From a virus (lineage: Duplodnaviria; Caudoviricetes), in the IMG/VR virus record IMGVR_UViG_3300043567_000458: a stretch of 64,000 nucleotides of DNA; one strand, written 5' to 3'. The notes beneath the pieces were generated by a model. It saw nothing but the letters and a program-made list of their open reading frames with translations, searched no databases and was not told the origin of the DNA. This document shows positions 1,373 through 60,414 of the stretch, one piece after another. The translations under genes were made by a program, and so were the position numbers. Every line of letters begins with the position of its first letter. Positions within the stretch are counted from its first letter, which is position 1.

Positions 1373-3100
1373 TTAAGAGTATTCGTAAACAACAATAATT
1401 CCGTCACCGCCAGCAGTAGCCGCAGCAACATACCCGGCGCCTCCGCCACCGCCACCATATATACCAGCAGTTCCTGCTGTAACGTAACCAGCTCCTACTC
1501 CAGCCACGCCAAAAAATGCTGGAATACCCCCAGTTCCACCTATGCTGTTAGCAATTGAAAGACCCGAAGCTTGCCCACCAGGTATGTTTAAGTCTCCGCC
1601 GGTTGCTGTTCCACCTGCACCGCCCACTGGATATCCGCCACTATTACTACCAGGACTGCCGCCACCAGCAGTTATTGTCCCAGCTGGATTAGAAAAAGTT
1701 GAACTTGCTCCAGACCCCCCTGCTGCTCCTCCTGCACCTACAACTCCACTAATTGAAGCTATAGATGTCACATCTATCATCTTAACTGCACAACCCCCGC
1801 CCCCGCCCCCGGGTGCTGATGAACCGTTGTAAACCACACCTCCACCTCCACCCCCGATAACATACACGTATATTTTATTAATTCCCACGGGTTTGGTCCA
1901 GGTGATTGCCCCAGCTGTGGTAAAATACTGCACAGAAACAAATCCTCCTACTGCGGCCCATGTGTTGTCGCCTCTCAAATAGGTGCTGGCACTGGCTGTG
2001 CCTGAGGATCCCAGTCGTGCCACGGGCACTGTTCCCGATGTTAATTGGGTGGCGTTGAGTGCAGTTAAATTCACCCCCGACACTGTGGGCAACGTGGCTG
2101 GAAAACGTGCATCAGCCAAAGTGCCCGTGGTTATCTGTGCAGCGTTGAGTGCAGTGATTAAGCTGCCGTCGCCACTGAAGTTGGTGGCTGTGAGTAGACC
2201 TGCATCTGATATTGTTACAGCACTGACCTGTATTAGAGTTCCACTGGTGCCATCATAACGAACCACGCTGTTGTCTACATAGCTGCCACCCTGGCTTATA
2301 ACATCGCCCGAACCTGGTCCTGACGGTCCAGTAGGACCCTGTGGACCTATCACAGAACCTAGATTTACTGTTGAACTATCCCCAAACATGACTATGAGAT
2401 TGCCAGAGCCATCCACTTCAAAAGAACTCACATTCAAGGGACTTGTCCCTGGGAGGCCTTGGGGTCCTGCCACACCCTGTGGTCCTTTGACATTGCCTAG
2501 ATTCACTGTTGAACTATCCCCAAACATGACTATGAGATCGCCAGAGCCATCTACTTCAAAAGAACTCACGTCCAGGGCATTTTGGCCAGCAGGACCCTGT
2601 GGCCCTACCACACCCTGCGGCCCTGTAGCACCAGTGGGACCTTGGGGCCCTACGGGACCTTGAGGGCCTACCACAGTCTGTGGCACAACAGCGGCAGCGG
2701 TCACAGTGGCTGCGCCAGCTGAGCCCATCACAGCAGTCAGCAGTTGACCCTGTCCGGTAGTCACATGTCTAGCTTTGTCCACGGGTTGTTGGCCTGACTG
2801 TATGGATCTACCCTGAGCCCTTAACACAGCCACTGCCTGTGTCCAAGCTGTAGTCCAAGCGGTGGTGTTGGTCAAGGTCGTGCTGCCTATGATTATCTGA
2901 CGAATCTGCTGCGGTGGAGTCAATTGGGGTGGCTGATCATGTGTGATCAAGTTTTTTCCGCTGAATTTGAGATTTACCAACCGGCCAGCTTCAGTGATGT
3001 TCTGTGCCTGAGGATTCAGTGCTATACTGCTGCTACCTGTAGTGAGATAGCTGGCTAGTATGGCCAGCTCTGTGCTGGTAAAAGCAATGGTCTGACTCAT
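1373..3100 (-). CDS. Collagen-like tail fibre / receptor-binding protein with glycine-rich C-terminal domain
   Basis: 575 aa; Gly-X-Y runs (GPQGPVGPQGPTGATGPQG); duplicated SSFEVDGSGxLIVMFGDSSTVNLG module; LNAAQITTGT/LNATQLTSGT repeats; GGGGG-rich C-terminus. Confidence 0.75.
   Translation of the reverse strand: MSQTIAFTSTELAILASYLTTGSSSIALNPQAQNITEAGRLVNLKFSGKNLITHDQPPQLTPPQQIRQIIIGSTTLTNTTAWTTAWTQAVAVLRAQGRSIQSGQQPVDKARHVTTGQGQLLTAVMGSAGAATVTAAAVVPQTVVGPQGPVGPQGPTGATGPQGVVGPQGPAGQNALDVSSFEVDGSGDLIVMFGDSSTVNLGNVKGPQGVAGPQGLPGTSPLNVSSFEVDGSGNLIVMFGDSSTVNLGSVIGPQGPTGPSGPGSGDVISQGGSYVDNSVVRYDGTSGTLIQVSAVTISDAGLLTATNFSGDGSLITALNAAQITTGTLADARFPATLPTVSGVNLTALNATQLTSGTVPVARLGSSGTASASTYLRGDNTWAAVGGFVSVQYFTTAGAITWTKPVGINKIYVYVIGGGGGGVVYNGSSAPGGGGGGCAVKMIDVTSIASISGVVGAGGAAGGSGASSTFSNPAGTITAGGGSPGSNSGGYPVGGAGGTATGGDLNIPGGQASGLSIANSIGGTGGIPAFFGVAGVGAGYVTAGTAGIYGGGGGGAGYVAAATAGGDGIIVVYEYS
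2358..2569. repeat. Two near-identical 74-bp direct repeats inside the fibre gene (2358-2431 and 2496-2569; period 138 bp)
   Basis: cctagatt(t/c)actgttgaactatccccaaacatgactatgagat...ttcaaaagaactcac occurs twice. Confidence 0.9.
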
Positions 3101-5135: not shown

Positions 5136-5213
5136 GGGCCCCTAGCTCATGTTGGTTAGAGCAGTGGACTCATAATCCATTGGTGCCGAGTTCGACTCTC
5201 GGGGGGCCCACCA
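5136..5213 (+). tRNA. tRNA with CAU anticodon (likely Ile2, lysidine-modified; elongator Met not excluded)
   Basis: Acceptor GGGCCCC/GGGGCCC + A + CCA; D stem GCTC/GAGC; anticodon arm GTGGA-CTCATAA-TCCAT; T arm CCGAG-TTCGACT-CTCGG; no initiator C1:A72 mismatch. Confidence 0.92.
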
Positions 5214-5218
5214 CACAG

Positions 5219-5295
5219 CAGCCCTTAGCTCAGTTGGATAGAGCAACAGCCTTCTAAGCTGTAGGCCACTGGTTCGAATCCAGTAGGGCTGGCCA
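5219..5295 (+). tRNA. tRNA-Arg(UCU)
   Basis: Acceptor CAGCCCT/AGGGCTG + G + CCA; anticodon arm ACAGC-CTTCTAA-GCTGT; T arm ACTGG-TTCGAAT-CCAGT. Confidence 0.95.
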
Positions 5296-8950: not shown

Positions 8951-9143
8951 TAGTATCGTAAAGGTCACCGTGGCCATAGCACTGATCATCCTGCTATTGG
9001 CCATTGGACCCTGGTTGGTGATTTGGGCCCTGAATACTCTGTTCCCTGTGCTGGCTATCCAGTTCACATTTTGGACATGGTGTGCTGTGGTTATCTTGGG
9101 CACGTTCTTTCGAGCGAATGTGTCTGTAAAACGGAAGGATTGA
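8937..9143 (+). CDS. Small membrane protein
   Basis: Two to three hydrophobic helices. Confidence 0.7.
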   Translation: MKMFDSIVKVTVAIALIILLLAIGPWLVIWALNTLFPVLAIQFTFWTWCAVVILGTFFRANVSVKRKD

Positions 9144-9221
9144 GCTTGACCTTAGATCAGCGTTCTGTTATTATAATAAAACGCTGATGAAGTTCAGCTC
9201 AACAACAAAGGAAACTTAAAC

Positions 9222-9491
9222 ATGAAACGTTTCAATCCAGAAACAAAGACTTTCAAGGTCTTCAACGCACTCTACAATGGTGCAGCTCTTACAGCAGCTC
9301 AAGCTCGTAAAATGGGTGTAGGCAACCTGTCAGCAGAAGTCAGCCGCATCAAGCAGAATGGTTATGCTGTTTATGCTAACCAACGCACAGCAGGCAATGG
9401 CGTGACTGTCACAGAATACGTGATGGGCCAGCCAAGCCGTGAAATCGTTGCTCTAGGCTACAAGGCCAAGGCATTGGGCATCACTCTTTAA
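9222..9491 (+). CDS. Putative winged helix-turn-helix DNA-binding protein
   Basis: LTAAQARKMGVGNLSAEVSRIKQNGYAVY pattern; AAGGA RBS; followed by hairpins and a terminator. Confidence 0.6.
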   Translation: MKRFNPETKTFKVFNALYNGAALTAAQARKMGVGNLSAEVSRIKQNGYAVYANQRTAGNGVTVTEYVMGQPSREIVALGYKAKALGITL

Positions 9492-9536
9492 TTAGGGTTT
9501 CAAAGACAAGCCGATTCGCTCCCGGGGCGTCTTTGG

Positions 9537-9570
9537 AGGGTGTTGTGTAAAAGCAACACCCTTTTTCTTT
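9537..9570 (+). terminator. Intrinsic terminator
   Basis: AGGGTGTTG/CAACACCCT stem followed by a T-rich tract. Confidence 0.8.
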
Positions 9571-9650
9571 GGCCGGCACTCTCCAAAAGAGGTTGACAGA
9601 TTGGATAAATGATAGTATACTAGCATCATAGTAAGAACTTAGGAGCGAGT

Positions 9651-10280
9651 ATGCAATTCACAGCAGATCAAGTATGGGGTGCCGCGGTAGCTGCAGATCG
9701 TATCAACGGGGGCTATCTCAAAGAGCCTGTATACGCTCAAAACCTAGATGTGATCGAGAAGCAGGCCAACAAGCAGATGGTCAAAGATTGGCTCCGCAGC
9801 AACTCCTTCTCGCTGGTTACAGCTGCAGATATCGAGAGGGGTCGTGAGGTTCGCAACTACTTCAACGGCTTTCTACTCAAAGAGATCGCAGGCAAGATCA
9901 ACGACTTTGAACGTCAGGCCCTGAAGATCGCCCAAAAGGATGAGTTCACAGGTCGCGATATGTTTGATTTCGCTGTGGTCTCATGCTTGCCAGCTGCTAT
10001 GCTGCGCGATCAAGCCAAGAACCAACTCACAACTGAGATCAGGTTCAGCACCCAGCTTGTTGCTGCTGTTGGTGATCGCATCCAGGGAGACATCGAAGTG
10101 ATCAAATGCTACTGGAACCAGAACTATGGCAAGTGGCGTGTCACGGCCCGTATGGGTGAGAGCTTTGTGGACTTTTGGGCTTCTGAGGAGTTTAAGGGCA
10201 CAGTCAGCATCAAAGCCAAAGTCAAAGCCCAGCGTGGCGATAATACAACACAGTTGAATTATGTGAAAATCGTAGGTTGA
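9651..10280 (+). CDS. Hypothetical protein (possible C-terminal OB-fold)
   Basis: 209 aa; own promoter and AGGAGCGA RBS; beta-rich C-terminus ending TQLNYVKI. Confidence 0.8.
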   Translation: MQFTADQVWGAAVAADRINGGYLKEPVYAQNLDVIEKQANKQMVKDWLRSNSFSLVTAADIERGREVRNYFNGFLLKEIAGKINDFERQALKIAQKDEFTGRDMFDFAVVSCLPAAMLRDQAKNQLTTEIRFSTQLVAAVGDRIQGDIEVIKCYWNQNYGKWRVTARMGESFVDFWASEEFKGTVSIKAKVKAQRGDNTTQLNYVKIVG

Positions 10281-14804: not shown

Positions 14805-15014
14805 ATGGGTTATAAGACATTTGAATTCGATACAATGCGTGACAAGTATGGTCCACGCCCAGGGTTAGAAGGCCCATTCAACTTCCTTGGTAGGGTTTTG
14901 TATTACGATCCCAAAGAGGGCAAGTATTGGGATCCACGCACAGACTTCTATGTTGAGCAGAGTGAGATGGACACACTCAACCGGAACCTGATGAATCTTT
15001 TAACAACATCTTAA
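14805..15014 (+). CDS. Hypothetical early protein
   Basis: Own promoter and AGGAGAGCGA RBS; LYYDPKEGKYWDP motif. Confidence 0.8.
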   Translation: MGYKTFEFDTMRDKYGPRPGLEGPFNFLGRVLYYDPKEGKYWDPRTDFYVEQSEMDTLNRNLMNLLTTS

Positions 15015-15023
15015 GGAGCGAAC

Positions 15024-15641
15024 ATGCCTAATTGGTGCAACAACAACCTAACACTGGAACACGAAGACCCAGCAATGATCAAGCGTGCCGCAGATGCACT
15101 GTTGCGTGGAGAGTTCTTGAATGAGTTCATTCCAGTGCCAACGGATCTGCAGATCGTTGCAGGACGATTGGGTGACGGTGACGAGCAGAGAGAACTAGAA
15201 CGCAAGACCGCTGAGAATCTAGAGAAATACGGTTATGGCAACTGGTATGACTTCTGTGTAGGCGAGTGGGGAACCAAATGGGATGTAGGCTGTGAAGGAA
15301 GCACTGATGTGCATCCAGATGGCAAGATGCTACACACCTACTTTGATTCAGCCTGGGCTCCTCCTGTGAATGCCTATGTGAAGTTAGAAGAGTTGGGCTT
15401 CAAGGTCAACGCTATGTATTACGAATCAGGTATGGCTTTTGCTGGTGCCTACGGTGATGGCAATGATGAAGAGATCAGCCTCGAAGGCATGAGTGCCGAT
15501 GATATCGAACAGCACTATCCAGAGATCAACGAAGCATTTGGCATTGCAGAAAGCATCCGGGAATACGAGGCTGAGAATGAAGAAGAGCTCACTGCTTGGA
15601 TCAAGGATGGTGCCGAGAAGAAGGCGCTGATCGCAGAATGA
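15024..15641 (+). CDS. DUF1281/YubB-like ferredoxin-fold protein
   Basis: MPNWC start, WGTKWD and FDSAWAPP motifs; AGGAGCGAA RBS. Confidence 0.7.
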   Translation: MPNWCNNNLTLEHEDPAMIKRAADALLRGEFLNEFIPVPTDLQIVAGRLGDGDEQRELERKTAENLEKYGYGNWYDFCVGEWGTKWDVGCEGSTDVHPDGKMLHTYFDSAWAPPVNAYVKLEELGFKVNAMYYESGMAFAGAYGDGNDEEISLEGMSADDIEQHYPEINEAFGIAESIREYEAENEEELTAWIKDGAEKKALIAE

Positions 15642-15931
15642 AAGTAATCAAACTTGATCGACGCTATAGTGGCTACGGTGTTTGGACACACAGAACCAAT
15701 AGCGGTCATTGGTACGGTGAAGAAGCTCGTGCCCAAGGACTCATGGCCTTCTACGAAATGCGATGCTACATGACGCAGATGAATGGCCCAGGCTGTTTCA
15801 TTCACGAAGCGTGGGCTATCAAGAAGGCGGGTCGGGCAGTGCCGGAATGGGCCTGGGACACAGACGGCAATGTGTTCTTTCGTGACTCGGCCCTGGTTAA
15901 CTTTACCTTGGCAAAGGATAGATGGTTATGA
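15638..15931 (+). CDS. Hypothetical protein
   Basis: ATGA-coupled start MKVIKLDRR. Confidence 0.7.
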   Translation: MKVIKLDRRYSGYGVWTHRTNSGHWYGEEARAQGLMAFYEMRCYMTQMNGPGCFIHEAWAIKKAGRAVPEWAWDTDGNVFFRDSALVNFTLAKDRWL

Positions 15932-35466: not shown

Positions 35467-35713
35467 GGTCTTTGCTCAAGTGATACAATATTTTAACACG
35501 TTCTAGGGCTTCTTGTAAAGTGGGATTCGTCCGAGATTCTCTTAAAATATCTTTCCAAGTATTTTCTAACTCATAATTGATGGTTATATTTTCGTTAAAT
35601 GGGTCGATATATTTTCCAATCATCGTTCGTTCTAATTTACCAACTTCTCTGGCATAGATTTCTTCGCCGTTGCGTTCGTAGATATATGTAGCACTTGGTG
35701 TTAATTTTCCCAT
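35453..35713 (-). CDS. Hypothetical protein
   Basis: 86-aa ORF in operon. Confidence 0.7.
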   Translation of the reverse strand: MGKLTPSATYIYERNGEEIYAREVGKLERTMIGKYIDPFNENITINYELENTWKDILRESRTNPTLQEALERVKILYHLSKDHGQK

Positions 35714-35766
35714 TTTATTTCCTAATCTATAAATTTTAACACAAATTTCGAACCCTGCTAACCTTT

Positions 35767-36450
35767 TTATACCTGCGAATTATAAAAATTTAATAAGTTT
35801 ACATACTGTTCGTTTTCATGTTTTCTAGATCCTTTAGCAGTCCATATCATTCGTTCGGGGGTCATTTTTGTACCGGTCCATTCAGAACTTAATCGAGGTA
35901 TTGATTTTTCTATCATCATAGCATCTAATATATCTTGATCTAAAAACCAATAAATGTTTCCTTGTTTGAAACTTTCTTGTAATCTAGTGCTATAAGTATT
36001 TCTAAAATCATCATCTCCAAACGATATTGCACTGGCTAACGATTTGCCACCTTTTCTAATAGTAATTTTACTAATGTTAGTTGCCTCTAAAAATTTAATT
36101 AATGGAATTGTTTTATTGGCAATCACATCACAATCAAAACTTATAATTTTTGCAGCTGGATCAAATATTTCCGGAATTCGTATAAATCGAATGCAGGCAC
36201 ATAGGGTATTAAATTCTTTATCATCAACATCTAGTAATTCGTTGGTGTAACTTATATTTTTTTGAGAACACCATTCTAGTTGTTTGTCTGTTGGATTATA
36301 CAAGTGAACATGAACTTTTGCCCACGGCGCATGTTGTAGTAAACTTAAGGCCAGTGCTTTACCATATAGATCAAAATATTTTGAATCTGCCGCAAAATAA
36401 AAAAAGTTACCCGTTAATCGAGCCGGTATATTCAAAGAAGGAAGAATCAT
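35767..36450 (-). CDS. Putative GT-A fold glycosyltransferase
   Basis: HVHLYNP, CIRF, SFDCDV (DxD) and WFLDQ motifs. Confidence 0.6.
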   Translation of the reverse strand: MILPSLNIPARLTGNFFYFAADSKYFDLYGKALALSLLQHAPWAKVHVHLYNPTDKQLEWCSQKNISYTNELLDVDDKEFNTLCACIRFIRIPEIFDPAAKIISFDCDVIANKTIPLIKFLEATNISKITIRKGGKSLASAISFGDDDFRNTYSTRLQESFKQGNIYWFLDQDILDAMMIEKSIPRLSSEWTGTKMTPERMIWTAKGSRKHENEQYVNLLNFYNSQV

Positions 36451-37262
36451 AGATTTTTTAATTCAATAAGCATTTGATCGTAATCGGAAATATTAAACTC
36501 TAATAATTTACGTGTGTCAATTAAGATTTTGTTTACGGGCTTTGGACCTTGTGTTTGTATAATGGTTTTGTTAAGAGCAAATATATCGTTTATTTTACAC
36601 AACAAGTCATATTTGTTAATCTTATTATCATTGTTAACAAGATGATACACTCCCGTAATTACCGGAGTTTGCATGTATTGATCAATGCATTTTGCCAACT
36701 GTAAGGTAGTGATGCCGTTCCACCAAGCATTGTTCCATCCTTGCAATTCACTTGCAGAATTATTGACAATCCAATTAAAGAGTCCTGTGCCATTTGATTT
36801 TATTTCAGGTCCGATGATACTCATTCTAAAAGTAACGTCTTTATCGTTGTTAATTTCACCTAGAGATTTCGACTTGCCATACAAGTTAGTTTCGGTGTGT
36901 GTATCTAATTCAACATAGTTTCCTTTCTTGCCATCAAACACACAATCAGTTGATAAGTGAACCACTCGTGTTTTGCTTTTTAAAAAGGTATGTTCTAAAA
37001 AGTGTGGAAACCAACCATTGATCAATGCAGCACGATCCGGACGATCGTTACTATCTTTAACTAACAATCCCACACAATTGATCACAAAGTCAAAAATATT
37101 TGTAACTTCACCGAGGCGTTGTATTTCTGCAAAATTCTCAACATCTATAATAAGATCTGCATTAGATCTTGCCAGTGTGCTTACATCGTGGCCTTGTTGT
37201 TTGAGATATCGAGTGATAACATGACCGGCCATACCGTTACTGCCAACTACTAAGATTTTCAT
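36447..37262 (-). CDS. RmlD-like SDR nucleotide-sugar 4-reductase (WbvR-type)
   Basis: GSNGMAG, VINCVG, HLSTDCVFDG and YGKSK motifs. Confidence 0.88.
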   Translation of the reverse strand: MKILVVGSNGMAGHVITRYLKQQGHDVSTLARSNADLIIDVENFAEIQRLGEVTNIFDFVINCVGLLVKDSNDRPDRAALINGWFPHFLEHTFLKSKTRVVHLSTDCVFDGKKGNYVELDTHTETNLYGKSKSLGEINNDKDVTFRMSIIGPEIKSNGTGLFNWIVNNSASELQGWNNAWWNGITTLQLAKCIDQYMQTPVITGVYHLVNNDNKINKYDLLCKINDIFALNKTIIQTQGPKPVNKILIDTRKLLEFNISDYDQMLIELKNL

Positions 37263-38251
37263 ATAAAATTGCCTTTCTTAAGCATTTCTTTAATGGCATT
37301 GCGTTGCATAATAAATGTTTTAGAACTAAACTCTTCTTCTGAAAACTTCTCTAAGCTGCTATACTTGTCTATTAATGTTTGTTTAGGATTAAATGGTAGT
37401 ATCACAAAATATGCATCGTCATATTTGTATGACATTACTGCTTCGTGTTTTGATATCAGCATCTCATCTAATTTTTCACCGGGTTTACTCCCCATCTCTG
37501 TAATTTCTGCATCGCCGTAGACATCTATCAAAATGTCTGCGATATCTTTGATGTATGCCGCTGGCATATTCATTACAAATGTTTCACCACCTATACTTTC
37601 TTCGGCAGCTTTAAATAGTAAACCAATAGCTTCTTCGAGTGTTAAGAAGAATCGAGTCATTCTTAGATCAGTGATAGTAACCGGTCCACCGTTACGGATC
37701 TGTTCTATAAAGTATGGAATAACACTGCCATTAGATCCCATAACATTGCCTCCACGTACACAGACAAATCTAGTATGATCGGTTAGATCGTTGGCTTGAA
37801 TAATCAACTTTTCACCCACAGCTTTAGTCATTCCGTATAAGTTCAATGGCTCAACTGCCTTGTCGGTGGATACATCGATGACTTTTTTAACACGATTTTC
37901 AATCGCAGCATTAACAACATTTGTTGTACCTATTACATTTGTTTTAATAGCTTCCTGAGGTTGATCTTCGCAGATAGGTACGTGTTTAAGAGCAGCCATG
38001 TGAAAAATATAATCAACATTCTTAGTAGCAAACTTAACTGCTTCGTAGTCTCTAACATCTCCTATGATGTATTTGATATTGAGATTTTTAAACTTACGTT
38101 GCATTAATACCTGCTGAAGTTCACCTCTTGAAAAAATAATAATTTCTTTAGGGTTGTGTTTTTCAAGCATTAATCGAGTCAGTGTTTGCCCCCACGAGCC
38201 AGTGCCGCCTGTAATTAAAATTCGTGCGTTGTCAAAAATACTATCATTCAT
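37259..38251 (-). CDS. UDP-GlcNAc 4,6-dehydratase/epimerase (FnlA/PseB/CapD-type)
   Basis: ITGGTGSWG, GDVRD, HMAALKHVP, STDKA, YGMTK and RGGNVMGSNGSV motifs. Confidence 0.9.
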   Translation of the reverse strand: MNDSIFDNARILITGGTGSWGQTLTRLMLEKHNPKEIIIFSRGELQQVLMQRKFKNLNIKYIIGDVRDYEAVKFATKNVDYIFHMAALKHVPICEDQPQEAIKTNVIGTTNVVNAAIENRVKKVIDVSTDKAVEPLNLYGMTKAVGEKLIIQANDLTDHTRFVCVRGGNVMGSNGSVIPYFIEQIRNGGPVTITDLRMTRFFLTLEEAIGLLFKAAEESIGGETFVMNMPAAYIKDIADILIDVYGDAEITEMGSKPGEKLDEMLISKHEAVMSYKYDDAYFVILPFNPKQTLIDKYSSLEKFSEEEFSSKTFIMQRNAIKEMLKKGNFI

Positions 38252-39002
38252 ATTTTACTCCGATGTCATCTGGGTTGTGGAATAATGCTCTATGTTTGTT
38301 ATCCAAAGATTCCACTTCCTCTGCAGGTCTTGTATTTGTATAGTAATACAAAATTAATGATCTACGACTTCTATCTTCGGGGCATTTTAACGGAGTAGGA
38401 TGACCGTGAAAACTAAAATCGTCAGTTCTAAATACAACCAGTCTGTTAAGTAATGGACTAATTTTATCAACGCATACTCCTGGTTTGTTGTCGGGGGTTC
38501 TAGACCACATTTCTAAATGGCCTCCCCATTCTTCTTGCCAATTATCGTTTAAGTATAGGATAACATTTAATCTTCTGTGTACTCCCATTAGATCGTGCCA
38601 GTTGCCGTCTGCGTGTACTGCTAGTGTGCCGCCTGTATTGATCTGGTTAAATCCGCCGCCTGTTAGATAGGGATCAGGAATAAGCCCATTAATTCCAGTT
38701 AGCTTAGATAAGAATCTTAAAAATGTTCCACCATTTAAAAAATTAATTAAATCCAATGTGTTAGCAGGAACATCACTATCGTCTTTCCAATCACTACGCC
38801 ATTTAATTTGAATCTTATCGTGATTACGCTTGTCCCAACTTTCAAAATTTTCATTGTTGAAGTCAGTTAGTGTTTCATTAATAACTTTTTCTGTAAAAAA
38901 ATCATCTATAGCAATATAGTTAAACGGTTGCTTAGATTGAAATTCGTTAGAAAGATCTTCTAGATCAAATTTGTCAAATTCTACATATTTCTTTTTCATC
39001 AA
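38244..39002 (-). CDS. 2OG-Fe(II) oxygenase (prolyl-hydroxylase-like)
   Basis: HAD (HxD), RRLNVILYLN, GGHLEMW, distal HGH and RRS motifs. Confidence 0.85.
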   Translation of the reverse strand: MMKKKYVEFDKFDLEDLSNEFQSKQPFNYIAIDDFFTEKVINETLTDFNNENFESWDKRNHDKIQIKWRSDWKDDSDVPANTLDLINFLNGGTFLRFLSKLTGINGLIPDPYLTGGGFNQINTGGTLAVHADGNWHDLMGVHRRLNVILYLNDNWQEEWGGHLEMWSRTPDNKPGVCVDKISPLLNRLVVFRTDDFSFHGHPTPLKCPEDRSRRSLILYYYTNTRPAEEVESLDNKHRALFHNPDDIGVKYE

Positions 39003-39008
39003 TTGTCC

Positions 39009-40082
39009 TTAGTTCGACAGTAGTATGTTAACAACTACGTCTGATACATTATTTTGATTGTACTCTTCAGGTATTTTCCAGTTCCTGTCAGCTGACTTCA
39101 TTCTGTTAAAGCAGGCAACAATATTTTCTTTATCCAAGCCGCTAATTACGTTAGAGCCGCACCAAACTGTTTCTGGTCTTTCTGTTGTATCTCTAATGGT
39201 AATTGTTGGTATACCGAATAAACACATTTCTTCTTGAACCGTTCCTGAATCGCTAATTGCCATATGTGCATTTTTTTCTAAGTTGACAAAATCAAAAAAC
39301 CCCAAAGGTTCCGTTATTATAATGTTTGGATTATCAACTAAAATATTAAACTTTGCTAATTTTTGTTTGGTTCTAGGATGACAACTAAACACTATCTTAT
39401 ATTCTTTAGATATTTCTTCAAAACTTTCAAAAATATTAATCAACCGATCGTTAACATCAACATTTTCTGCTCGATGCGCTGTGGCTATAATGTAGTTATT
39501 TTTTTCAAGATTAAGTGCTGATAATATAGGAGAACTGTCTATTTCATTTGCATAAAAATCTATTACTTCTTTAATTGGATTCCCCGTGACAAATACTTTG
39601 TTGTTTGCAGCACCTTCACGCAATAAATTTTGACGGCTTAACTCAGTATAAGGTAAATTTATACTAGACACGGCATCAATAATTTTTCTATTCTTTTCTT
39701 CAGGAACTTTAAGATCATAACAACGATTGCCAGCTTCCATATGATAGACCGGAATGCCTAATCTTTCACATATAATTGCTGCTAGGCCTGAATTGGTGTC
39801 GCCCAATATCAAAACTTTATCAGGCTTAAATTCGTTTACAAATTTTTCAACACCTACAAATGTATTACCAATTTGTTCTGCAAAGGATACAGATTTATTG
39901 TCAATTACATAATCTGGGTTTCTTAAACTCAATTCTTTGAAGAATACATCATTTAAATTTTTATCATAATTTTGACCGGTATGCAATATTTTATGATCAA
40001 CAATGTTATCAAGTTTAGGAATAATTCTAGATAGTCTTATAATCTCAGGTCTTGTTCCTAAAATTGTTAGAACCTTAGTCAT
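39009..40082 (-). CDS. Non-hydrolysing UDP-HexNAc 2-epimerase (FnlC/Cap5G/WbvD-type)
   Basis: GTRPEIIRL, HTGQNYD, LGDTNS, HMEAGNR, HRAENVD and SDSGTVQEE motifs. Confidence 0.92.
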   Translation of the reverse strand: MTKVLTILGTRPEIIRLSRIIPKLDNIVDHKILHTGQNYDKNLNDVFFKELSLRNPDYVIDNKSVSFAEQIGNTFVGVEKFVNEFKPDKVLILGDTNSGLAAIICERLGIPVYHMEAGNRCYDLKVPEEKNRKIIDAVSSINLPYTELSRQNLLREGAANNKVFVTGNPIKEVIDFYANEIDSSPILSALNLEKNNYIIATAHRAENVDVNDRLINIFESFEEISKEYKIVFSCHPRTKQKLAKFNILVDNPNIIITEPLGFFDFVNLEKNAHMAISDSGTVQEEMCLFGIPTITIRDTTERPETVWCGSNVISGLDKENIVACFNRMKSADRNWKIPEEYNQNNVSDVVVNILLSN

Positions 40083-40608
40083 TTGGAAATACCCCAACAA
40101 AATAATGGCAAAGACTAGGTAAGTCTAATGGTGTCCAGTCTGTAAAATCTTCTTTATGCCAAAGACTTTTATGTATGTCAAAAGTATTACCATAGCACCA
40201 TAATCTTGGATCATTTACATTTTTATGATTATCATCCCAAATTTCTTCTAACGGAGTCAATAATACAATTTTTTTAGTGGTAAGAGTTTTCACAGAATCT
40301 AAAAGACGAATGCCTGCATCTTTATCAAGGTGTTCGATAAAATCTATCATTAAAACATAATCAAATTTCTCACCGCCTAATAAGGTGTTTAGATCAACAG
40401 TTTCTAGGTCTGCTACAAAATCTGGATTCACTGACTCCCATGCATCAATTGTGATAATTTTGCTACATCTGTCTTTAAATGGATCTGAATATAATTTCGG
40501 ACCGCATCCGAGATCTAAAATAGAATCTCCTTCTTTAACAACGGAGTGTAGATATCTCATTAGCTCGTCGTTCGATGAAGCTCGTTTTCCGTTTATATTG
40601 TGTTTCAT
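40075..40608 (-). CDS. Class I SAM-dependent methyltransferase
   Basis: ILDLGCG and DFIEHL motifs. Confidence 0.85.
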   Translation of the reverse strand: MKHNINGKRASSNDELMRYLHSVVKEGDSILDLGCGPKLYSDPFKDRCSKIITIDAWESVNPDFVADLETVDLNTLLGGEKFDYVLMIDFIEHLDKDAGIRLLDSVKTLTTKKIVLLTPLEEIWDDNHKNVNDPRLWCYGNTFDIHKSLWHKEDFTDWTPLDLPSLCHYFVGVFPND

Positions 40609-41375
40609 TTAATATTGTCCTTATTATTAGCTCTAATAGTGGGGGGAACAGATGCTTGCAATTTGGCAAGTAATTGTTGATTATTAACAGTTGCTGGCGG
40701 CGCCAGCGGGTTATTATACATTTTAGGGTGCCATTGATGTATAACATACGGTGCTTCAACAAACGTTACATTTAATTTTTTATTTTTAATTCTTTGTAAA
40801 AATTCGTCGTCATCATAACTATGACCGAAAGCAAATTCTTCGTCAAAACCATTTAATTCACACAAGTTCTTCCTAGTAATTGCCGAGGTATAGTGATATC
40901 CCACTGGATGGTGAACACTATGATTAACCCATTTTGTTTTACTAGATTTTGTTCCGCCTACATCTATTGTACCGCCTTGATGTAGAATTCTTACATCGCC
41001 TTTGTTACATGCCCAGCAATGAAAGGTTAGATAATTGTCATCAGTTAATGTTTGATTCACATATGAGATTACATCGCCTTGATGACAGCACTCTGGATTT
41101 TGAATAATAATTTTGTCACCAGAACTTTCACGGAATCCAACATTATACGGCACACAGGGATTAAACCAAGTCTTAGATCCTCGATCTGACATTTTAATTA
41201 TTTTAATATTCAGCGACGGAAATTCACTAGGAACAGTATCTAAACTGTTTTCTAAATTGCTAAAATCATCTACAATTATTACTTCAAAGTCTTTTTCCCG
41301 ACTTTGAATAAATGTTTTTAGAGTATGTCTTAATAATTCTAATCGATTATAATATGCCATTACTATTGATATCAT
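40605..41375 (-). CDS. Glycosyltransferase family 2-like
   Basis: ISIVMAYYNR, IIVDD, NVG and GFDE...YDDDEF motifs. Confidence 0.88.
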   Translation of the reverse strand: MISIVMAYYNRLELLRHTLKTFIQSREKDFEVIIVDDFSNLENSLDTVPSEFPSLNIKIIKMSDRGSKTWFNPCVPYNVGFRESSGDKIIIQNPECCHQGDVISYVNQTLTDDNYLTFHCWACNKGDVRILHQGGTIDVGGTKSSKTKWVNHSVHHPVGYHYTSAITRKNLCELNGFDEEFAFGHSYDDDEFLQRIKNKKLNVTFVEAPYVIHQWHPKMYNNPLAPPATVNNQQLLAKLQASVPPTIRANNKDNIK

Positions 41376-41971
41376 GATAGTTTTACCTCAGCCATTATAT
41401 ATTTGTTTCGTTGATTAATCACATTAACAATTTCTACGCCGTCTTCTTGCTCGGGCATATTAGTCTTTTTGTATATCACTCGCAAATCCATTATAATTCT
41501 CGTATTTGCATGTGAATGTTTTAATATCAAATCTTTATAAGTGTTTACAGGATAGTGAAAACCACAAGACACCCACGACGTAATCAAATCAAATTTAACA
41601 TCTTCTGGAATATTAATATTATTGCAATCAATTAAATGATATTTTTTAGTGCCTAATTTTTTTAATTCTGCGTCTACCTCTGACAATGGATGATAGAATA
41701 AGAAATCGTTAGCTGTCTTATTATATTTTCCAGTTGATGCTTCGGGAGATTTAGAGTCGTTATCTTTAGTATCGCCGTCTAACAACCACAGCTCGGAATT
41801 ATATTTTTCATTGAACATTCTCGATTCCCAAGCAAGCCCGCAGCCAATATCTAAAATCTTCATTGGTGCGCTGCCTAAGAATTTATCTAGAATTTCAAAA
41901 TTTTCTTTCTTGTGGCTTTGATATAATTCTGTTTCCCAGAGCCCGCCACTGCCTAACCACTGTTTTGTCAT
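41372..41971 (-). CDS. Class I SAM-dependent methyltransferase
   Basis: ILDIGCG and FDLITSW motifs. Confidence 0.8.
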   Translation of the reverse strand: MTKQWLGSGGLWETELYQSHKKENFEILDKFLGSAPMKILDIGCGLAWESRMFNEKYNSELWLLDGDTKDNDSKSPEASTGKYNKTANDFLFYHPLSEVDAELKKLGTKKYHLIDCNNINIPEDVKFDLITSWVSCGFHYPVNTYKDLILKHSHANTRIIMDLRVIYKKTNMPEQEDGVEIVNVINQRNKYIMAEVKLS

Positions 41972-42312
41972 TTTGAATACCCCACAGTTTCACGCTCAAT
42001 GTCATCGTGATCAAATTCTGCCCAATATAATTCAAATGCTACACAGTCTGTGACTGCTTCAAATTGATGATATTCGCCCGGAGCAACCTTTGTATATTCG
42101 CCTGCCTTTAACAAAGTTTCGTCTACGAGATCATAATTGCCTTTCCATACACGAATAATCATTTCACCGGACTCGACAAAGAATCCATTCCACTTGTATT
42201 TGTGTTTATGCTTAGAACATACTCCACCGGCGTTGGCTTCAATACGATGAAATTCTAATACACCGTTGGCTTCTAACAATTCTGTCTGTCCCCATACTTT
42301 TCCTGCTTTCAT
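41968..42312 (-). CDS. Cupin (sugar isomerase-like) protein
   Basis: KVWG, HKH...F.V.SG and PGEYHQF motifs; AAGGAG RBS; TAAATA upstream. Confidence 0.8.
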   Translation of the reverse strand: MKAGKVWGQTELLEANGVLEFHRIEANAGGVCSKHKHKYKWNGFFVESGEMIIRVWKGNYDLVDETLLKAGEYTKVAPGEYHQFEAVTDCVAFELYWAEFDHDDIERETVGYSK

Positions 42313-42338
42313 GCTATCTCCTTAATGTGTGTATTTAA

Positions 42339-42845
42339 TCAGATCAATTTATGTAATTGCAAAACTTCGCTTTGTCTTGAAACTTCTTTGACAAAGAACA
42401 CGCAAGGTGGATTGACCTCCTCGCTGAGCGGCACAGTTAATAATTGTCCGTTTTTCATCTTAGGAAAATACCAACGCACATCCTGATAGATATTAACAAT
42501 TTCTATAGGCATATATTCTGCTCTAAAGCCTTTGATCGGATTAAACACTAGTGCGTCAAATCCACGCTCATTGATACTAGTCAACGGTAACACTTCGGGA
42601 TCAAGCCCACAATCTTTGTCACCTACTACCATGCACCAATCCAAAGGCATTTGCACTTCATAGCCTCCTATGTTCAGCACTATAGCCGGTGAATTAAACG
42701 ATTCTAAAAATATCAAAGGCATGAAATAAAAATCTGGATCCTGTGGATTTGAATTATCCAGCACCGAAAATCTTGTATCTTCGTCTACTTGATCCGGCAA
42801 TTCGTTTAGATCAAATGCTTCATTGTTTAGTGTGAGTATTCTCAT
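42339..42845 (-). CDS. Conserved hypothetical protein, possible degenerate Hint fold
   Basis: 168-aa beta-rich protein near UvsW. Confidence 0.6.
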   Translation of the reverse strand: MRILTLNNEAFDLNELPDQVDEDTRFSVLDNSNPQDPDFYFMPLIFLESFNSPAIVLNIGGYEVQMPLDWCMVVGDKDCGLDPEVLPLTSINERGFDALVFNPIKGFRAEYMPIEIVNIYQDVRWYFPKMKNGQLLTVPLSEEVNPPCVFFVKEVSRQSEVLQLHKLI

Positions 42846-43483
42846 TTTAATTTTCCTAGTATTACGTTTCGGTGATCAGCATCCCATGCTAAAATGTCAT
42901 AGTTAAAATTGATCTTACAGAAATCAATTGCTCTAGTATCACTGTTTTCTTGTTCTACAACCAACAGAGGATTGTATTTTTTAATGGTGTTAACTGCACC
43001 TTGTAAAACATTTAATTCGTATCCGTCTACATCAATTTTAATATAATCAATATCTGAAAAATTAAATTCATCTATAGTGTATAGCTGTTCATCATACCAC
43101 TTTTCTTGCGGTACTTTTCCAGCAGTTATACTTCCACCACCGCTTACCTTTATAATTTTATGTTCTTCACCCAACGCACATTTAAAATGTGTAATTTTAG
43201 ATAGGTCAACATTTTTATGAAATAATTTTCTTCTTCGATAATCAAAACAAAAAACATGATTAAAATCTTTGTGAAGATATCTTGTATATTCGCCGTCTCT
43301 ACAACCAACATCTATAGCATTTCTTTTTTCTGTAATAAAAGGAAGACTAGCTACCCACGTTTTTTTACAATGGTGATTAGGGAATTCTTGTGTGCCATCT
43401 GGGCTAAAGAAAAAATCAGTATCGTAAAAATCCCAGTTAAATGTGTTTTCAGAAAACTGAGTAGGTTCAAGAGGATGTATCAT
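42842..43483 (-). CDS. FkbM-family methyltransferase
   Basis: AIDVGCRDG and IDYIKIDVDGYE..VLQGA motifs. Confidence 0.85.
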   Translation of the reverse strand: MIHPLEPTQFSENTFNWDFYDTDFFFSPDGTQEFPNHHCKKTWVASLPFITEKRNAIDVGCRDGEYTRYLHKDFNHVFCFDYRRRKLFHKNVDLSKITHFKCALGEEHKIIKVSGGGSITAGKVPQEKWYDEQLYTIDEFNFSDIDYIKIDVDGYELNVLQGAVNTIKKYNPLLVVEQENSDTRAIDFCKINFNYDILAWDADHRNVILGKLK

Positions 43484-44973
43484 ATATTAACCTTGGTAAT
43501 GGTAAAGGGGTATTTGGCCTCTTTATAAAACTTTTTTCTTTCTGTTAGGTGCCGCTTGGCATATTTGCAGGTGCTGGTAATATCCCAGATCTCTACGTGA
43601 TCTTTGTCTTCTGCTTTTCTAATGCCTCGCCCAATGCTTTGTATAACACGGACAAAGCTCTTTCCGGGTTCAAGAAGAACCAAATTAAAAATACGTGGAA
43701 TATTAATACCCACAGCGGCCACACCATAAGTCGCCAAAATAATCTTGCCATCACTTGTTTTAATTTCATCATATTCTTCCTTGCGATCATCGAGTTTCAT
43801 ACCGCCGCTGACAAACACTGCCTCTGGTATTAAGTCAATTAATTTTTTTCCTGTATCGATTCTGTTAATTAACACCAGAGTATTACCGGTAGCAGATAAC
43901 GCAGTGATCTTACCGGCGATCCATTGTAGCCGATTATCGTCTGTGACAAGAAATGAGTATTCGTCCTGGAATGAATTAAACACCTGCACATCTGTGGTCT
44001 GTAACACATTGATATTCAATTGTGCTAACACACCTTTTTCCTGTAAATCATACGCAGATACTTGATTTATCACAGGACCTATACTGGCCAATATACCTTG
44101 AAACTCCCACTGTTCTTTAGGCACAGTTCCGGTGAGTCCCCAGCGTATGGCACAGTTACGAAAGTTTTGTGTCAGTAGTTTGGTCAATACTTCTGCCTTG
44201 GCTTGATGCACTTCGTCAACAATGATCGCGCAGACTCCTTCACAGAATTCTGCCAATGTCATGGTGTCGTTGTCATAGCTTTTCTTGTCTAACACATTCA
44301 AACTTTGCCAGGTGCATATGGTATGTGTCTTACCTAATTCTTTTCTATCTCCGAAGTAAACACCAACATCCAGGCCTAGGTTCTTGTAATCTTCTTCAGT
44401 TTGAACCACCAACGATTTATTAGGAACAACTACCATTGTGCGACCATAAGGTTCGCATAGATGGCTTAAAGTTGCTGTGGTAATTGTTTTTCCAGCACCA
44501 GTGGCTACTTCTTGCAAGGCCTGAGGATTCTCTAAAAACTTGTTGATTACCTCATACTGATAGTCTCTTAGAACAATAGGTTCTCCTGCCTGTTGATGTC
44601 CTTTGGGCCAGACTTTGCCTTTGTCGGCCCAGTAATTTTCATCGATAGCAGCAAATTTTAATTCCTGATGCGGTCTAAGATCTTCGACTTCGATGTCATA
44701 ACCTTCATCATCAATTACTGCTAGAATCACATCAAGGTGTGCAAGATATCCACTGCCGCCAATGTTAAAATAAGTTTTAGTTCCGTCCCAACGTCCTAGT
44801 TTATAGGCCGGCATGTGTCGGGCATAAGGTAAATCGAACTTTAATTTATTGACAATTTTCCGTCGTGTTTCAACTCGTAGCCCTTCTACCTTGATGTTTA
44901 CTTCGTCTTTGATTGTTAACTTACAGTTCAACAATTTTTTGTCCTTTGGTTTCTGTTGGTCTAGTATCACCAA
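43480..44973 (-). CDS. uvsW: SF2 DNA helicase, UvsW-like
   Basis: LRDYQ, ATGAGKT, DEVH, GLTGT and QSIGRGIR motifs; true start may be TTG near 44931. Confidence 0.9.
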   Translation of the reverse strand: MVILDQQKPKDKKLLNCKLTIKDEVNIKVEGLRVETRRKIVNKLKFDLPYARHMPAYKLGRWDGTKTYFNIGGSGYLAHLDVILAVIDDEGYDIEVEDLRPHQELKFAAIDENYWADKGKVWPKGHQQAGEPIVLRDYQYEVINKFLENPQALQEVATGAGKTITTATLSHLCEPYGRTMVVVPNKSLVVQTEEDYKNLGLDVGVYFGDRKELGKTHTICTWQSLNVLDKKSYDNDTMTLAEFCEGVCAIIVDEVHQAKAEVLTKLLTQNFRNCAIRWGLTGTVPKEQWEFQGILASIGPVINQVSAYDLQEKGVLAQLNINVLQTTDVQVFNSFQDEYSFLVTDDNRLQWIAGKITALSATGNTLVLINRIDTGKKLIDLIPEAVFVSGGMKLDDRKEEYDEIKTSDGKIILATYGVAAVGINIPRIFNLVLLEPGKSFVRVIQSIGRGIRKAEDKDHVEIWDITSTCKYAKRHLTERKKFYKEAKYPFTITKVNI

Positions 44974-58827: not shown

Positions 58828-60414
58828 TCAAAGACCCATACTGACAAAGATCGGCATAGGCATGGATTCATCGGTGATTTTTTCTGTCATTTTATCGTAG
58901 ATCTGCGGATCCCAGTCCGCTAACACATCTGCCATGCGCATGATTAACAGTGTTGAACTGACTAAATCGTCATGTTCTCCACTCTTGGCTTTAAAACCCA
59001 GCCCTGAAGCAATATATGTTTTTAGCTCAGATATCAACGGTTTGCTGTTGATAGTCATCTTGTGATTTTCGATCATGTTTTTTAGTTGACTGCAAGCAGA
59101 TATTTTACTTCTGTGCGTGGTATTAAATCCTTTACGGAACTTGCGTATGTGTCCTTTGCGGATGGGCTCACTAAGAAACAGTCCATGAAAGTTTTCTTCG
59201 CCTATATCGTTGATAACTATCAGAGCAGATTCACCTATTGTATTATTTTCAACACTGTAATACATGATAGGTGCACCGCCTCGTTCTTCGCCTCTGTCAT
59301 GTATGTATTTTAGTATTTCTCTCAAGACTCTGACCTGTTGCTGCACAGGCGTGGTATTGTGATGCCACTCTGCTACTTGTATCATTTCAGGCATTTCGTA
59401 GACTTGGATGGCTCCGTAGTCACCACCTGTGCCTAGGCTGGGATCTAAAGCTATTAGATATGTGGCTTTGGGATTTATATCTTTATACCAACGAGTCTGC
59501 CCCATGTTCATCATAGGGTCTGAACCTGCAAGTTCAACCAACTTCACAGAGTTGATTAAAGTTTCGTCATAGATCAAGAACTCGCATTCAAACTCTCTAC
59601 GGAACCGTTCTTCGCCAATCTTGGCACGTTCTAATCTAGCCCACTCGTCATCCCTGTCTGGATGTTCCTTCCAGTGTGCGAAGAAGGGGAAGAAACCGTT
59701 GACTCCTAGTTTAGTTTCATTGCCGAAGTCGTCAAACCGTTTGTTGGCTTCTAACCAAATCATAGCAAATTGATCTTCGTCACTGTTAGGAGTTGATGTG
59801 ATAATAGCTTTACCGCCTGTGGCCAGCGTAGGTGATAATGCTGTCCAGAATTCTTTGGCTTTTTCCGGCGGCTGCACGAATGCAAACTCATCGCAATAGA
59901 TTAGAGAAAGAGATTTACCACGACCTGTGTTTTCTGTGGTAGTAGTTGCTTGTATACGTGATCCGTTGTCGTATTCAATGGTGTTTCTGTTGTATGAATA
60001 CACTCCAGCTCGAATAAAGTCGGGTAAATTTTCATAGGCGTATCTATAACGATCCATGATGTCTCGAGCACCTTCATACTTGTGTGCCGCTATCAATACC
60101 TGCACATCTGGCATAAACTGTGTATACCACAACAGGTATGCCACTGCACATGTAGTCTTACCCATCTGGCGCGGCAACATGGCTATGCATTCTTTGTTTG
60201 TGTGATATGCGTCAATCAACAATTCTTGAAACCCGTAGGGCTCAAATGGTATTGATCCTCTAGTAGGGTGTTGTATCTTGATAAAGTTTTTAGCAAAGTA
60301 TAGCGGACCGGTTACTGGATCCATACAAGCTTCTAGATGCTTGACTTCGTCGAGATTATAGCGTATCTGTGCATGGGCTTTCTTAATTAGATTGCCGTCT
60401 AAGGATTTTGACAT
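58828..60414 (-). CDS. terL: Terminase large subunit (gp17-like)
   Basis: PRQMGKT Walker A, YCDEFAF Walker B, TSTPN, ALDPS and HDDLV nuclease motifs. Confidence 0.95.
   Translation of the reverse strand: MSKSLDGNLIKKAHAQIRYNLDEVKHLEACMDPVTGPLYFAKNFIKIQHPTRGSIPFEPYGFQELLIDAYHTNKECIAMLPRQMGKTTCAVAYLLWYTQFMPDVQVLIAAHKYEGARDIMDRYRYAYENLPDFIRAGVYSYNRNTIEYDNGSRIQATTTTENTGRGKSLSLIYCDEFAFVQPPEKAKEFWTALSPTLATGGKAIITSTPNSDEDQFAMIWLEANKRFDDFGNETKLGVNGFFPFFAHWKEHPDRDDEWARLERAKIGEERFRREFECEFLIYDETLINSVKLVELAGSDPMMNMGQTRWYKDINPKATYLIALDPSLGTGGDYGAIQVYEMPEMIQVAEWHHNTTPVQQQVRVLREILKYIHDRGEERGGAPIMYYSVENNTIGESALIVINDIGEENFHGLFLSEPIRKGHIRKFRKGFNTTHRSKISACSQLKNMIENHKMTINSKPLISELKTYIASGLGFKAKSGEHDDLVSSTLLIMRMADVLADWDPQIYDKMTEKITDESMPMPIFVSMGL

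Follow-up and report, generated by a model that had tools for sequence, protein, structure and literature searches.

In Megavirus chilensis, the inverting dehydratase Mg534 (Tyr140xxxLys144) and Mg535, a 270-residue RmlD-like protein that acts as C3-epimerase and 4-reductase and has a conserved Cys, lead to UDP-N-acetyl-L-rhamnosamine (UDP-L-RhaNAc); Mg536 is predicted to give UDP-N-acetyl-L-quinovosamine (UDP-L-QuiNAc), both sugars are for fibril glycans, and methylated RhaNAc has been found in Megavirus (PMC9614988, PMC10117803). In bacteria, the enzymes WbvB, WbvR and also WbvD of Vibrio cholerae make UDP-L-QuiNAc in vitro (PMC6765297), and the FnlA/QnlA/QnlB arrangement leads to L-QuiNAc in Escherichia coli (PMC7685785). 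Here we describe a related cassette in a 64,000-nucleotide stretch of tailed-phage DNA, IMG/VR record IMGVR_UViG_3300043567_000458 (the whole stretch is called the window below), in which genes for a UDP-N-acetylglucosamine (UDP-GlcNAc) 4,6-dehydratase, an RmlD-fold reductase and a non-hydrolysing 2-epimerase enclose a gene for a 2-oxoglutarate (2OG)-Fe(II) oxygenase. The cassette is a phage variant of the known three-step pathway, with an uncharacterised dehydratase clade and an accessory oxygenase; the oxygenase is its most novel element, followed by the dehydratase clade. Synthesis of UDP-L-RhaNAc and then UDP-L-QuiNAc is the best reading of the cassette and probably the correct one, although we infer every chemical step.

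Like the Megavirus set, the cassette is virus-encoded and clustered with glycosyltransferase genes, and it combines a short Tyr-xxx-Lys dehydratase, an RmlD-like reductase of almost the same length (271 residues here, ~270 there) with a conserved Cys, and a WbvD/WbjD-like 2-epimerase. The parallel with Megavirinae drawn in the original prediction is borne out by the Mg534/535/536 precedent. The two systems differ in the host, an amoeba there and a bacterium here, in the oxygenase gene inside the phage operon, and in the phage dehydratase, which probably lies outside the Mg534 branch (4TQG, 160 bits with the single sequence and 235 with the profile, versus 255-337 bits to FnlA/PseB). V. cholerae O37 WbvB/WbvR/WbvD, which correspond to E. 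coli FnlA/QnlA/QnlB, share with the phage the reductase subfamily, the epimerase family and the contiguous, co-oriented genes, whereas the phage dehydratase is of the Tyr type and of another clade (258 versus 559-767 bits on the FnlA model), the epimerase gene comes first and the oxygenase gene is inserted. The closest cellular relatives are Tyr-type cassettes with the same gene order in Bacillaceae/Paenibacillus and in an Asgard metagenome-assembled genome (MAG) (L015, L045, L059, L065, L073, L078 and L082), whose dehydratases and epimerases are each 52-58% identical to the phage enzymes. They differ in having no oxygenase and in belonging to cellular polysaccharide or glycoprotein loci; no study of them turned up in the searches made. 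The closest cellular Tyr-type cassette, in Bacillus infantis (L059), lies amid three DUF1796 paralogues, a subtilase, a GT4 and a GT2 glycosyltransferase and two further sugar enzymes of the short-chain dehydrogenase/reductase (SDR) class, and looks like an unstudied surface-glycan locus of a spore-former.

The trio proposed in the original prediction is real and operonic, occupying 36447-40082 on the minus strand, and the oxygenase noted in its midst has an intact iron triad and 2OG-binding Arg (Table 1). The epimerase stop is separated from the oxygenase ATG by 9 nucleotides that contain AAGGA, the oxygenase and dehydratase genes overlap by 8 nucleotides, and the dehydratase and reductase genes overlap by 4 (ATGA). 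Given these tight junctions and the overlapping flanking genes, the four genes are an internal piece of a longer operon, which lies within a phage glycan gene region of ~20 kb. A promoter and terminator scan gave nothing decisive. The longest epimerase open reading frame (ORF) begins with a TTG at 40100.

The dehydratase (PF02719, 323 bits) retains the motifs TGGTGSWG, STDK and Y139xxxK143. It was originally assigned the motif set of the UDP-GlcNAc 4,6-dehydratase/epimerase, and this part of the prediction failed for the FnlA/WbvB motifs: the protein carries NLYGMTK, with the Tyr-xxx-Lys of PseB/FlaA1, where FnlA has NAMGISK. NAMGxSK, with Met in place of Tyr, is common to FnlA, CapE and the enzyme of the E. 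coli Qnl cluster. On the FnlA model TIGR04130 (cut-off 730 bits), E. coli FnlA scored 767, the E. coli A25 enzyme 619 and CapE 559 bits, whereas bacterial Tyr-type enzymes scored 265-282 and the window dehydratase 258 bits. PseB is alike in being a short Polysacc_synt_2 enzyme with STDK and YxxxK, 38-46% identical to the window dehydratase; on the PseB model TIGR03589, however, the latter reached 327 bits, below the cut-off of 407.75, and the scores of this model were bimodal in 101 genomes, with true PseBs at 520-560 and all others at 305-332 bits. When 70 sequences were analysed by careful maximum likelihood, with CapD-like long dehydratases as the root, the tree resolved a PseB clade (support 100/99), a Met-type FnlA/CapE/Qnl clade (100/100) and a Tyr-type clade (100/99), with the branching order among the three unresolved. 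The Tyr-type clade consists of a monophyletic phage group (100/98) together with enzymes from Bacillaceae, Paenibacillus, other Bacillota MAGs and a Promethearchaeum MAG. When ORFs from the 1.5-kb flanks of ten PseB genes were compared with the window by tblastn, the only match was that of PseB itself to the dehydratase, and none of the ORFs scanned between 27 and 56 kb contained an aminotransferase or NeuB-type domain. PseB identity was rejected on the model score, the separate clade and the absence of companion genes, as judged from those 1.5-kb flanks and scanned ORFs. The dehydratase grouped with neither PseB nor PglF/CapD, and the grouping with PseB or PglF that the original prediction had named as contrary evidence was therefore not found. 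Orthology to FnlA/WbvB is likewise ruled out, by the Tyr motif, the score on the FnlA model and the separate clade. Functionally, the Tyr-type clade may represent a fourth class of short UDP-GlcNAc dehydratases.

The reductase (PF04321, 79 bits) is a single domain with intact GSNGMAG, S104-T-D-C107 and Y128xxxK132 motifs and no cupin domain. Its predicted structure (mean predicted local distance difference test score, pLDDT, 96.5) matches RmlD structures at a template modeling (TM) score of 0.83 with ~20% identity, and the RmlD-like character claimed for it stands as far as the fold is concerned. It is not RmlD proper, which was ruled out by a score of 76 bits on the rmlD model TIGR01214 (cut-off 224; E. 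coli RmlD 328 bits) and by the position of E. coli RmlD as a very distant outgroup on a very long branch. The QnlA-position reductase of E. coli A25 also scored low on this model (95 bits), and it is to this protein that the window reductase is related, with 34% identity and an E value of 7e-41, compared with 1e-5 to 1e-12 for true RmlDs in the Protein Data Bank (PDB). The A25 O-antigen locus has the FnlA/QnlA/QnlB arrangement: an FnlA-like dehydratase is followed by a 'dTDP-4-dehydrorhamnose reductase family protein' and then by wecB, before a GT4 gene and WbuC. In the tree, the window reductase nests in the family of cassette reductases and the phage reductases are monophyletic (Shimodaira-Hasegawa-like approximate likelihood ratio test 96). 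The reductases of Tyr-type and Met-type cassettes interleave, which argues for a single keto-sugar as the product that they receive from either type of dehydratase.

STDC[VI]F is found in 56 of 56 cassette reductases, while E. coli RmlD has STDYVF. A review states that Mg535 has conserved the Cys with which GDP-fucose synthase epimerises C3 (PMC9614988). Cys107 of the window reductase may correspond to this residue, by analogy with the published description; the best viral fold match of the reductase in BFVD was a Fadolivirus reductase (32% identity), and no entry there is named Mg535. When a profile of 51 reductase relatives was run against one genome per prokaryotic species, 80 bacterial loci were obtained, in most of which a dehydratase and a 2-epimerase gene adjoin the reductase gene. 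The L-N-acetylfucosamine (L-FucNAc) systems FnlA/FnlB/FnlC (Cap5E/F/G, WbjB/C/D) differ from the phage cassette in using the SDR-plus-cupin reductase CapF/WbjC: a tblastn search with Staphylococcus aureus CapF and E. coli WbjC gave no match in the window at E 1e-3. The CapF-type L-FucNAc route was rejected for this reason, in agreement with the original prediction, which set the L-FucNAc route with its WbjC/Cap5F-type reductase apart.

The epimerase (PF02350, 311 bits) was correctly assigned to the FnlC/Cap5G type. Its best solved relative is S. aureus CapG (7ya2, 299 bits), compared with 145 bits for E. coli WecB, and it shares 43% identity with the QnlB-position enzyme and 42% with FnlC, both of E. 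coli. In the tree, the phage epimerases group with those of the bacterial Tyr-type cassettes and this group is sister to the CapG/FnlC/QnlB group, with WecB far outside. Judged from these sequences, the epimerase type co-varies with the dehydratase type.

Taken together, these assignments suggest the following route. The dehydratase would convert UDP-D-GlcNAc to UDP-2-acetamido-2,6-dideoxy-beta-L-arabino-hex-4-ulose by 4,6-dehydration and C5 inversion, as expected from its family; to our knowledge, the L-arabino-4-hexulose is the same product of all characterised short inverting dehydratases. The QnlA/WbvR/Mg535-like reductase would then reduce C4 to give UDP-L-RhaNAc, with C3 epimerised either by the dehydratase or by the reductase itself, as shown for Mg535; the phage reductase keeps the family-wide Cys at what may be the matching place. 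Finally, the CapG/FnlC/QnlB-type epimerase would interconvert UDP-L-RhaNAc and UDP-L-QuiNAc. The sugars would supply the glycosyltransferases and methyltransferases of the same operon, the oxygenase would be co-translated with the dehydratase, and both epimerase and oxygenase are optional additions to a dehydratase-reductase core. The route from UDP-GlcNAc through a 4-keto-6-deoxy-L sugar to UDP-L-RhaNAc and UDP-L-QuiNAc is the most economical one because the window contains no relatives of CapF/WbjC or of the PseB-flanking genes compared, Megavirus provides a tested viral precedent, the characterised short inverting dehydratases have a common product, and the reductase family serves both cassette types. 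We also count in its favor that a rhamnosyl-O-methyltransferase-like gene takes the place of the oxygenase gene in one relative (see below).

Several points weigh against this route. The Tyr-type clade contains no solved structure or characterised enzyme, so that C5 inversion by the dehydratase is deduced only from equal closeness to inverting types: a profile of the clade gives similar scores for FnlA, PseB, Pen and CapE (320-337 bits), whereas Mg534 (235 bits) and PglF (221 bits) are further away. Pen itself yields a 5,6-ene and not an inverted keto-sugar. With the QnlA-position protein of E. coli, itself a long branch in the tree, the reductase shares only 34% identity, and orthology to the tested Mg535, WbvR and WbvB would run through intermediate sequences. 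A different sugar would result if C3 were not epimerised after the C5 inversion, giving UDP-6-deoxy-L-AltNAc or UDP-6-deoxy-L-IdoNAc and their C2 epimers, or if the dehydratase were of the retaining kind, giving UDP-D-QuiNAc or UDP-D-FucNAc. The PseB-like Tyr, the higher score on the PseB than on the FnlA model and the lack of a characterised member in the clade are all compatible with such outcomes. We nevertheless consider them unlikely, because the reductase belongs to a family that is common to Met-type cassettes and interleaves with theirs, its family-wide Cys may be the counterpart of the residue linked to C3 epimerisation in Mg535, the clade profile is further from the retaining PglF than from inverting types, and the dehydratase is not a PseB orthologue and is not accompanied in the window by relatives of PseB-flanking genes.

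The configuration at C4 is the second point at which the products could diverge. RmlD-fold reductases can give either C4 configuration, as the Tll talose enzymes illustrate, and L-PneNAc and L-FucNAc are therefore compatible with the sequence: reduction from the other face would yield UDP-6-deoxy-L-TalNAc (L-PneNAc), which the epimerase would turn into UDP-L-FucNAc, amounting to a CapF-less L-FucNAc route. FnlC, CapG and the QnlB-position enzyme are equally close to the epimerase. With enzymes of the FnlC and QnlB types intermingled in the tree, the epimerase alone does not distinguish the L-FucNAc from the L-QuiNAc route. The reductase speaks against this outcome, being a member of the QnlA/WbvR-position family and not of the CapF/WbjC family, of which tblastn found no homologue in the window; every described L-FucNAc route that we know of uses the CapF/WbjC family. 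We regard reduction from the other face as quite improbable. A similarly low probability applies to the idea that the epimerase works independently as an ordinary UDP-GlcNAc 2-epimerase producing UDP-ManNAc, so that the dehydratase-reductase pair gives only UDP-L-RhaNAc. The epimerase does pass the cut-off of the wecB NCBIfam model TIGR00236 (292 versus 210 bits), and many related phages have the pair without any epimerase, but it is far closer to CapG than to E. coli WecB, which is a distant outgroup, epimerases of its clade go together with Tyr-type dehydratases, and bacteria and phages have conserved the gene order epimerase-dehydratase-reductase. The synthesis of UDP-L-RhaNAc followed by UDP-L-QuiNAc thus remains our preferred reading.

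The oxygenase is, by sequence and predicted structure, a bona fide Fe(II)/2OG enzyme. It scored 61 bits on PF13640 (cut-off 27), and H130xD132 and H199, the iron triad, and R213, which binds 2OG, are invariant in 32 relatives. Its model (pLDDT 93.9) best matches the ribosomal prolyl hydroxylases Tpa1 and OGFOD1 (TM ~0.7, 20-24% identity), followed by PolD, prolyl hydroxylases, PasI and HygX; from these matches, the fold does not tell whether the enzyme acts on a protein or on a sugar or nucleoside. In all ten viral loci with an oxygenase relative of at least 58% identity, the oxygenase gene is directly upstream of the dehydratase gene, with a spacing between an 8-nucleotide overlap and an 11-nucleotide gap, and its own upstream neighbours vary, being an epimerase gene or methyltransferase genes on either strand. 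No linkage to the cassette was seen in the 73 viral loci with relatives of at most 46% identity. In cells, linkage was found in only two cases, a Chitinophaga MAG with the order epimerase-reductase-oxygenase (L010) and a 29-kb contig carrying P0363 with the order dehydratase (Met-type)-reductase-epimerase-oxygenase-GT4-GT1. Oxygenase relatives occurred in 18 of 401 sampled Bacteroidota genomes, and none of the 20 loci fetched (30-45% identity) was near a cassette; in this sample, oxygenases of the family were thus not generally linked to the cassette in bacteria. Other glycan genes were present in three of the four Bacteroidota neighbourhoods examined (L302, L305, L306 and L309, with relatives 43-45% identical): these neighbourhoods held GT1 and UbiA; a 1037-residue TMEM260-like protein O-mannosyltransferase and a methyltransferase; an acetyltransferase and a Wzy_C protein; and a methyltransferase and MoxR. 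The oxygenase family looks glycan-associated in general, with one phage subfamily locked to this dehydratase.

The further tailoring proposed for the oxygenase in the original prediction is plausible, and two kinds of substrate can be considered by analogy. The enzyme might oxidise the UDP-6-deoxy-L-N-acetylhexosamine, or the sugar after its transfer, as the nucleoside-sugar enzymes PolD, PasI and HygX share its fold. It might instead be a prolyl or lysyl hydroxylase that readies a virion protein for glycosylation, for example the collagen-like fibre encoded in the window. In Mimivirus, collagen-like proteins are hydroxylated and glycosylated. The fibre candidate is a 575-residue protein with three collagen-like G-P-Q/G-P-T blocks and a Gly-rich C-terminal part; it is probably a fibre and is only a candidate acceptor of glycosylation or hydroxylation. 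As a correlate of the oxygenase it was uninformative, a homologue being found only in the nearest relative record. We consider it possible, but less likely than not, that the module has in the oxygenase a fourth enzyme of its own that makes something undescribed.

At least 296 viral contigs in IMG/VR have a relative of the reductase, as judged by the reductase profile. We compared gene arrangements in the best 80 loci among these 296 relatives. Dehydratase-reductase was the most frequent (40 loci), followed by epimerase-dehydratase-reductase (27), reductase alone, mostly at contig ends (7), epimerase-oxygenase-dehydratase-reductase as in the window (5) and epimerase-dehydratase (1). In this phage group the module has a fixed core of dehydratase and reductase (73 of the 80 loci), and the epimerase, present in 33 of the 80 loci, is optional. 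Long metagenome contigs of 165 kb and 354 kb have the pair in the corresponding region, with the gp32/UvsX genes on one side and a helicase gene on the other. A contig of only 106 kb that CheckV rates as 100% complete (IMGVR_UViG_3300032288_005212, L201) has the full epimerase-oxygenase-dehydratase-reductase arrangement, with a very divergent epimerase (38% identical, on a long branch), indicating that the module is not confined to jumbo phages. Among GenBank phage records, the cassette was found in none except a 635-kb metagenomic megaphage (LR745206.1, L322). In that genome a Tyr-type dehydratase (NVYGMCK, 37% identical) lies 5 kb from a reductase relative (36%), and neither an epimerase nor an oxygenase is present within 9 kb.

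In relatives, the slot between the epimerase and dehydratase genes (or between the dehydratase and reductase genes) is occupied by a 205-residue class I methyltransferase, GT-D-like proteins, GT2 glycosyltransferases, or a rhamnosyl-O-methyltransferase/CmcI-like protein (Table 1), and the slot is a hot spot for the exchange of glycan-tailoring genes. The cassette of the window is itself a mosaic. Its oxygenase and dehydratase are 95-97% identical to those of one relative, L088, while its epimerase is 84% identical to that of L096 and 75% to that of L088, and its reductase is 83% identical to those of both L088 and L001. These gene-by-gene differences in identity point to recombination breakpoints inside the module.

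The source of the window is an uncultured large lake phage. Its terminase is ~54% identical to that of the Pseudomonas jumbo phage PA5oct, the cassette region is flanked by gp32-like, RecA/UvsX-like, DnaB-like and helicase genes, and CheckV estimates for related records imply genomes of ~275-360 kb. The stretch 35700-43500 is complete in at least 24 lake-water metagenome runs dated 2020-2025, and the cassette is therefore not an assembly accident; none of the listed sequencing runs containing the stretch is an RNA run. With blastn, no match to the region was found in 50,697 phage records, and the record nearest to this phage (G001) is without the region. The genes next to the cassette and other features mentioned in the text are given in Table 1. 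The ORF downstream of the reductase gene matched no Pfam or PHROG family at E 1e-3, with only a match to Glyco_transf_8 at E 0.01 as a faint GT8-like hint. Three genes upstream of the epimerase gene, the same operon encodes a free 114-residue Cupin_2 protein that could act on a keto-sugar. It has no similarity to WbuC, the cupin of the E. coli fnl/qnl clusters, and WbuC has no relative in the window. Two adjacent tRNA genes are also present.

Table 1. Positions of the cassette genes, their neighbours and other features discussed in the text (strand is given for the window).
Feature	Sequence	Position	Strand	Description
227-residue ORF downstream of reductase	window	35767-36450	-	overlaps reductase stop by 4 nt
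RmlD-fold 4-reductase, QnlA/WbvR/Mg535-like, possibly also C3-epimerase	window	36447-37262	-	271 aa; PF04321
UDP-GlcNAc 4,6-dehydratase, Tyr-type (Polysacc_synt_2), presumably C5-inverting	window	37259-38251	-	330 aa; PF02719
2OG-Fe(II) oxygenase, Tpa1/OGFOD1-like double-stranded beta-helix	window	38244-38999	-	251 aa; PF13640, PF13661
2-Epimerase, CapG/FnlC/QnlB type	window	39009-40082	-	357 aa from ATG at 40082; PF02350, TIGR00236
Class I methyltransferase, upstream of epimerase	window	40075-40608	-	PF13489; overlaps neighbours
GT2 glycosyltransferase	window	40605-41375	-	PF00535; overlaps neighbour
Cupin_2 protein	window	41968-42312	-	114 aa
Collagen-like protein, probable fibre	window	1373-3100	-	575 aa
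tRNA-Met (CAT), tRNA-Arg (TCT)	window	5136-5295	+	adjacent genes
Terminase	window	58828-60414		
Bacillus infantis cassette locus	L059	550-12658		closest cellular Tyr-type cassette
Megaphage dehydratase and reductase relatives	L322 (LR745206.1)	9001-9861 and 14861-15652		5 kb apart
Slot inserts in relatives	L100; L119; L120; L118; L142	5017-6024; 1653-2675; 5414-6031; 6276-7004; 3781-6025		

The locus draws attention to a dehydratase clade without a characterised member, paired with known reductase and epimerase families. The tight linkage of oxygenase and dehydratase makes the function of the oxygenase accessible with four recombinant proteins, and phages with and without the 2-epimerase offer a natural comparison. 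A conserved core module in a widespread group of large lake phages points to tailed phages making unusual glycans of their own, as giant viruses do.

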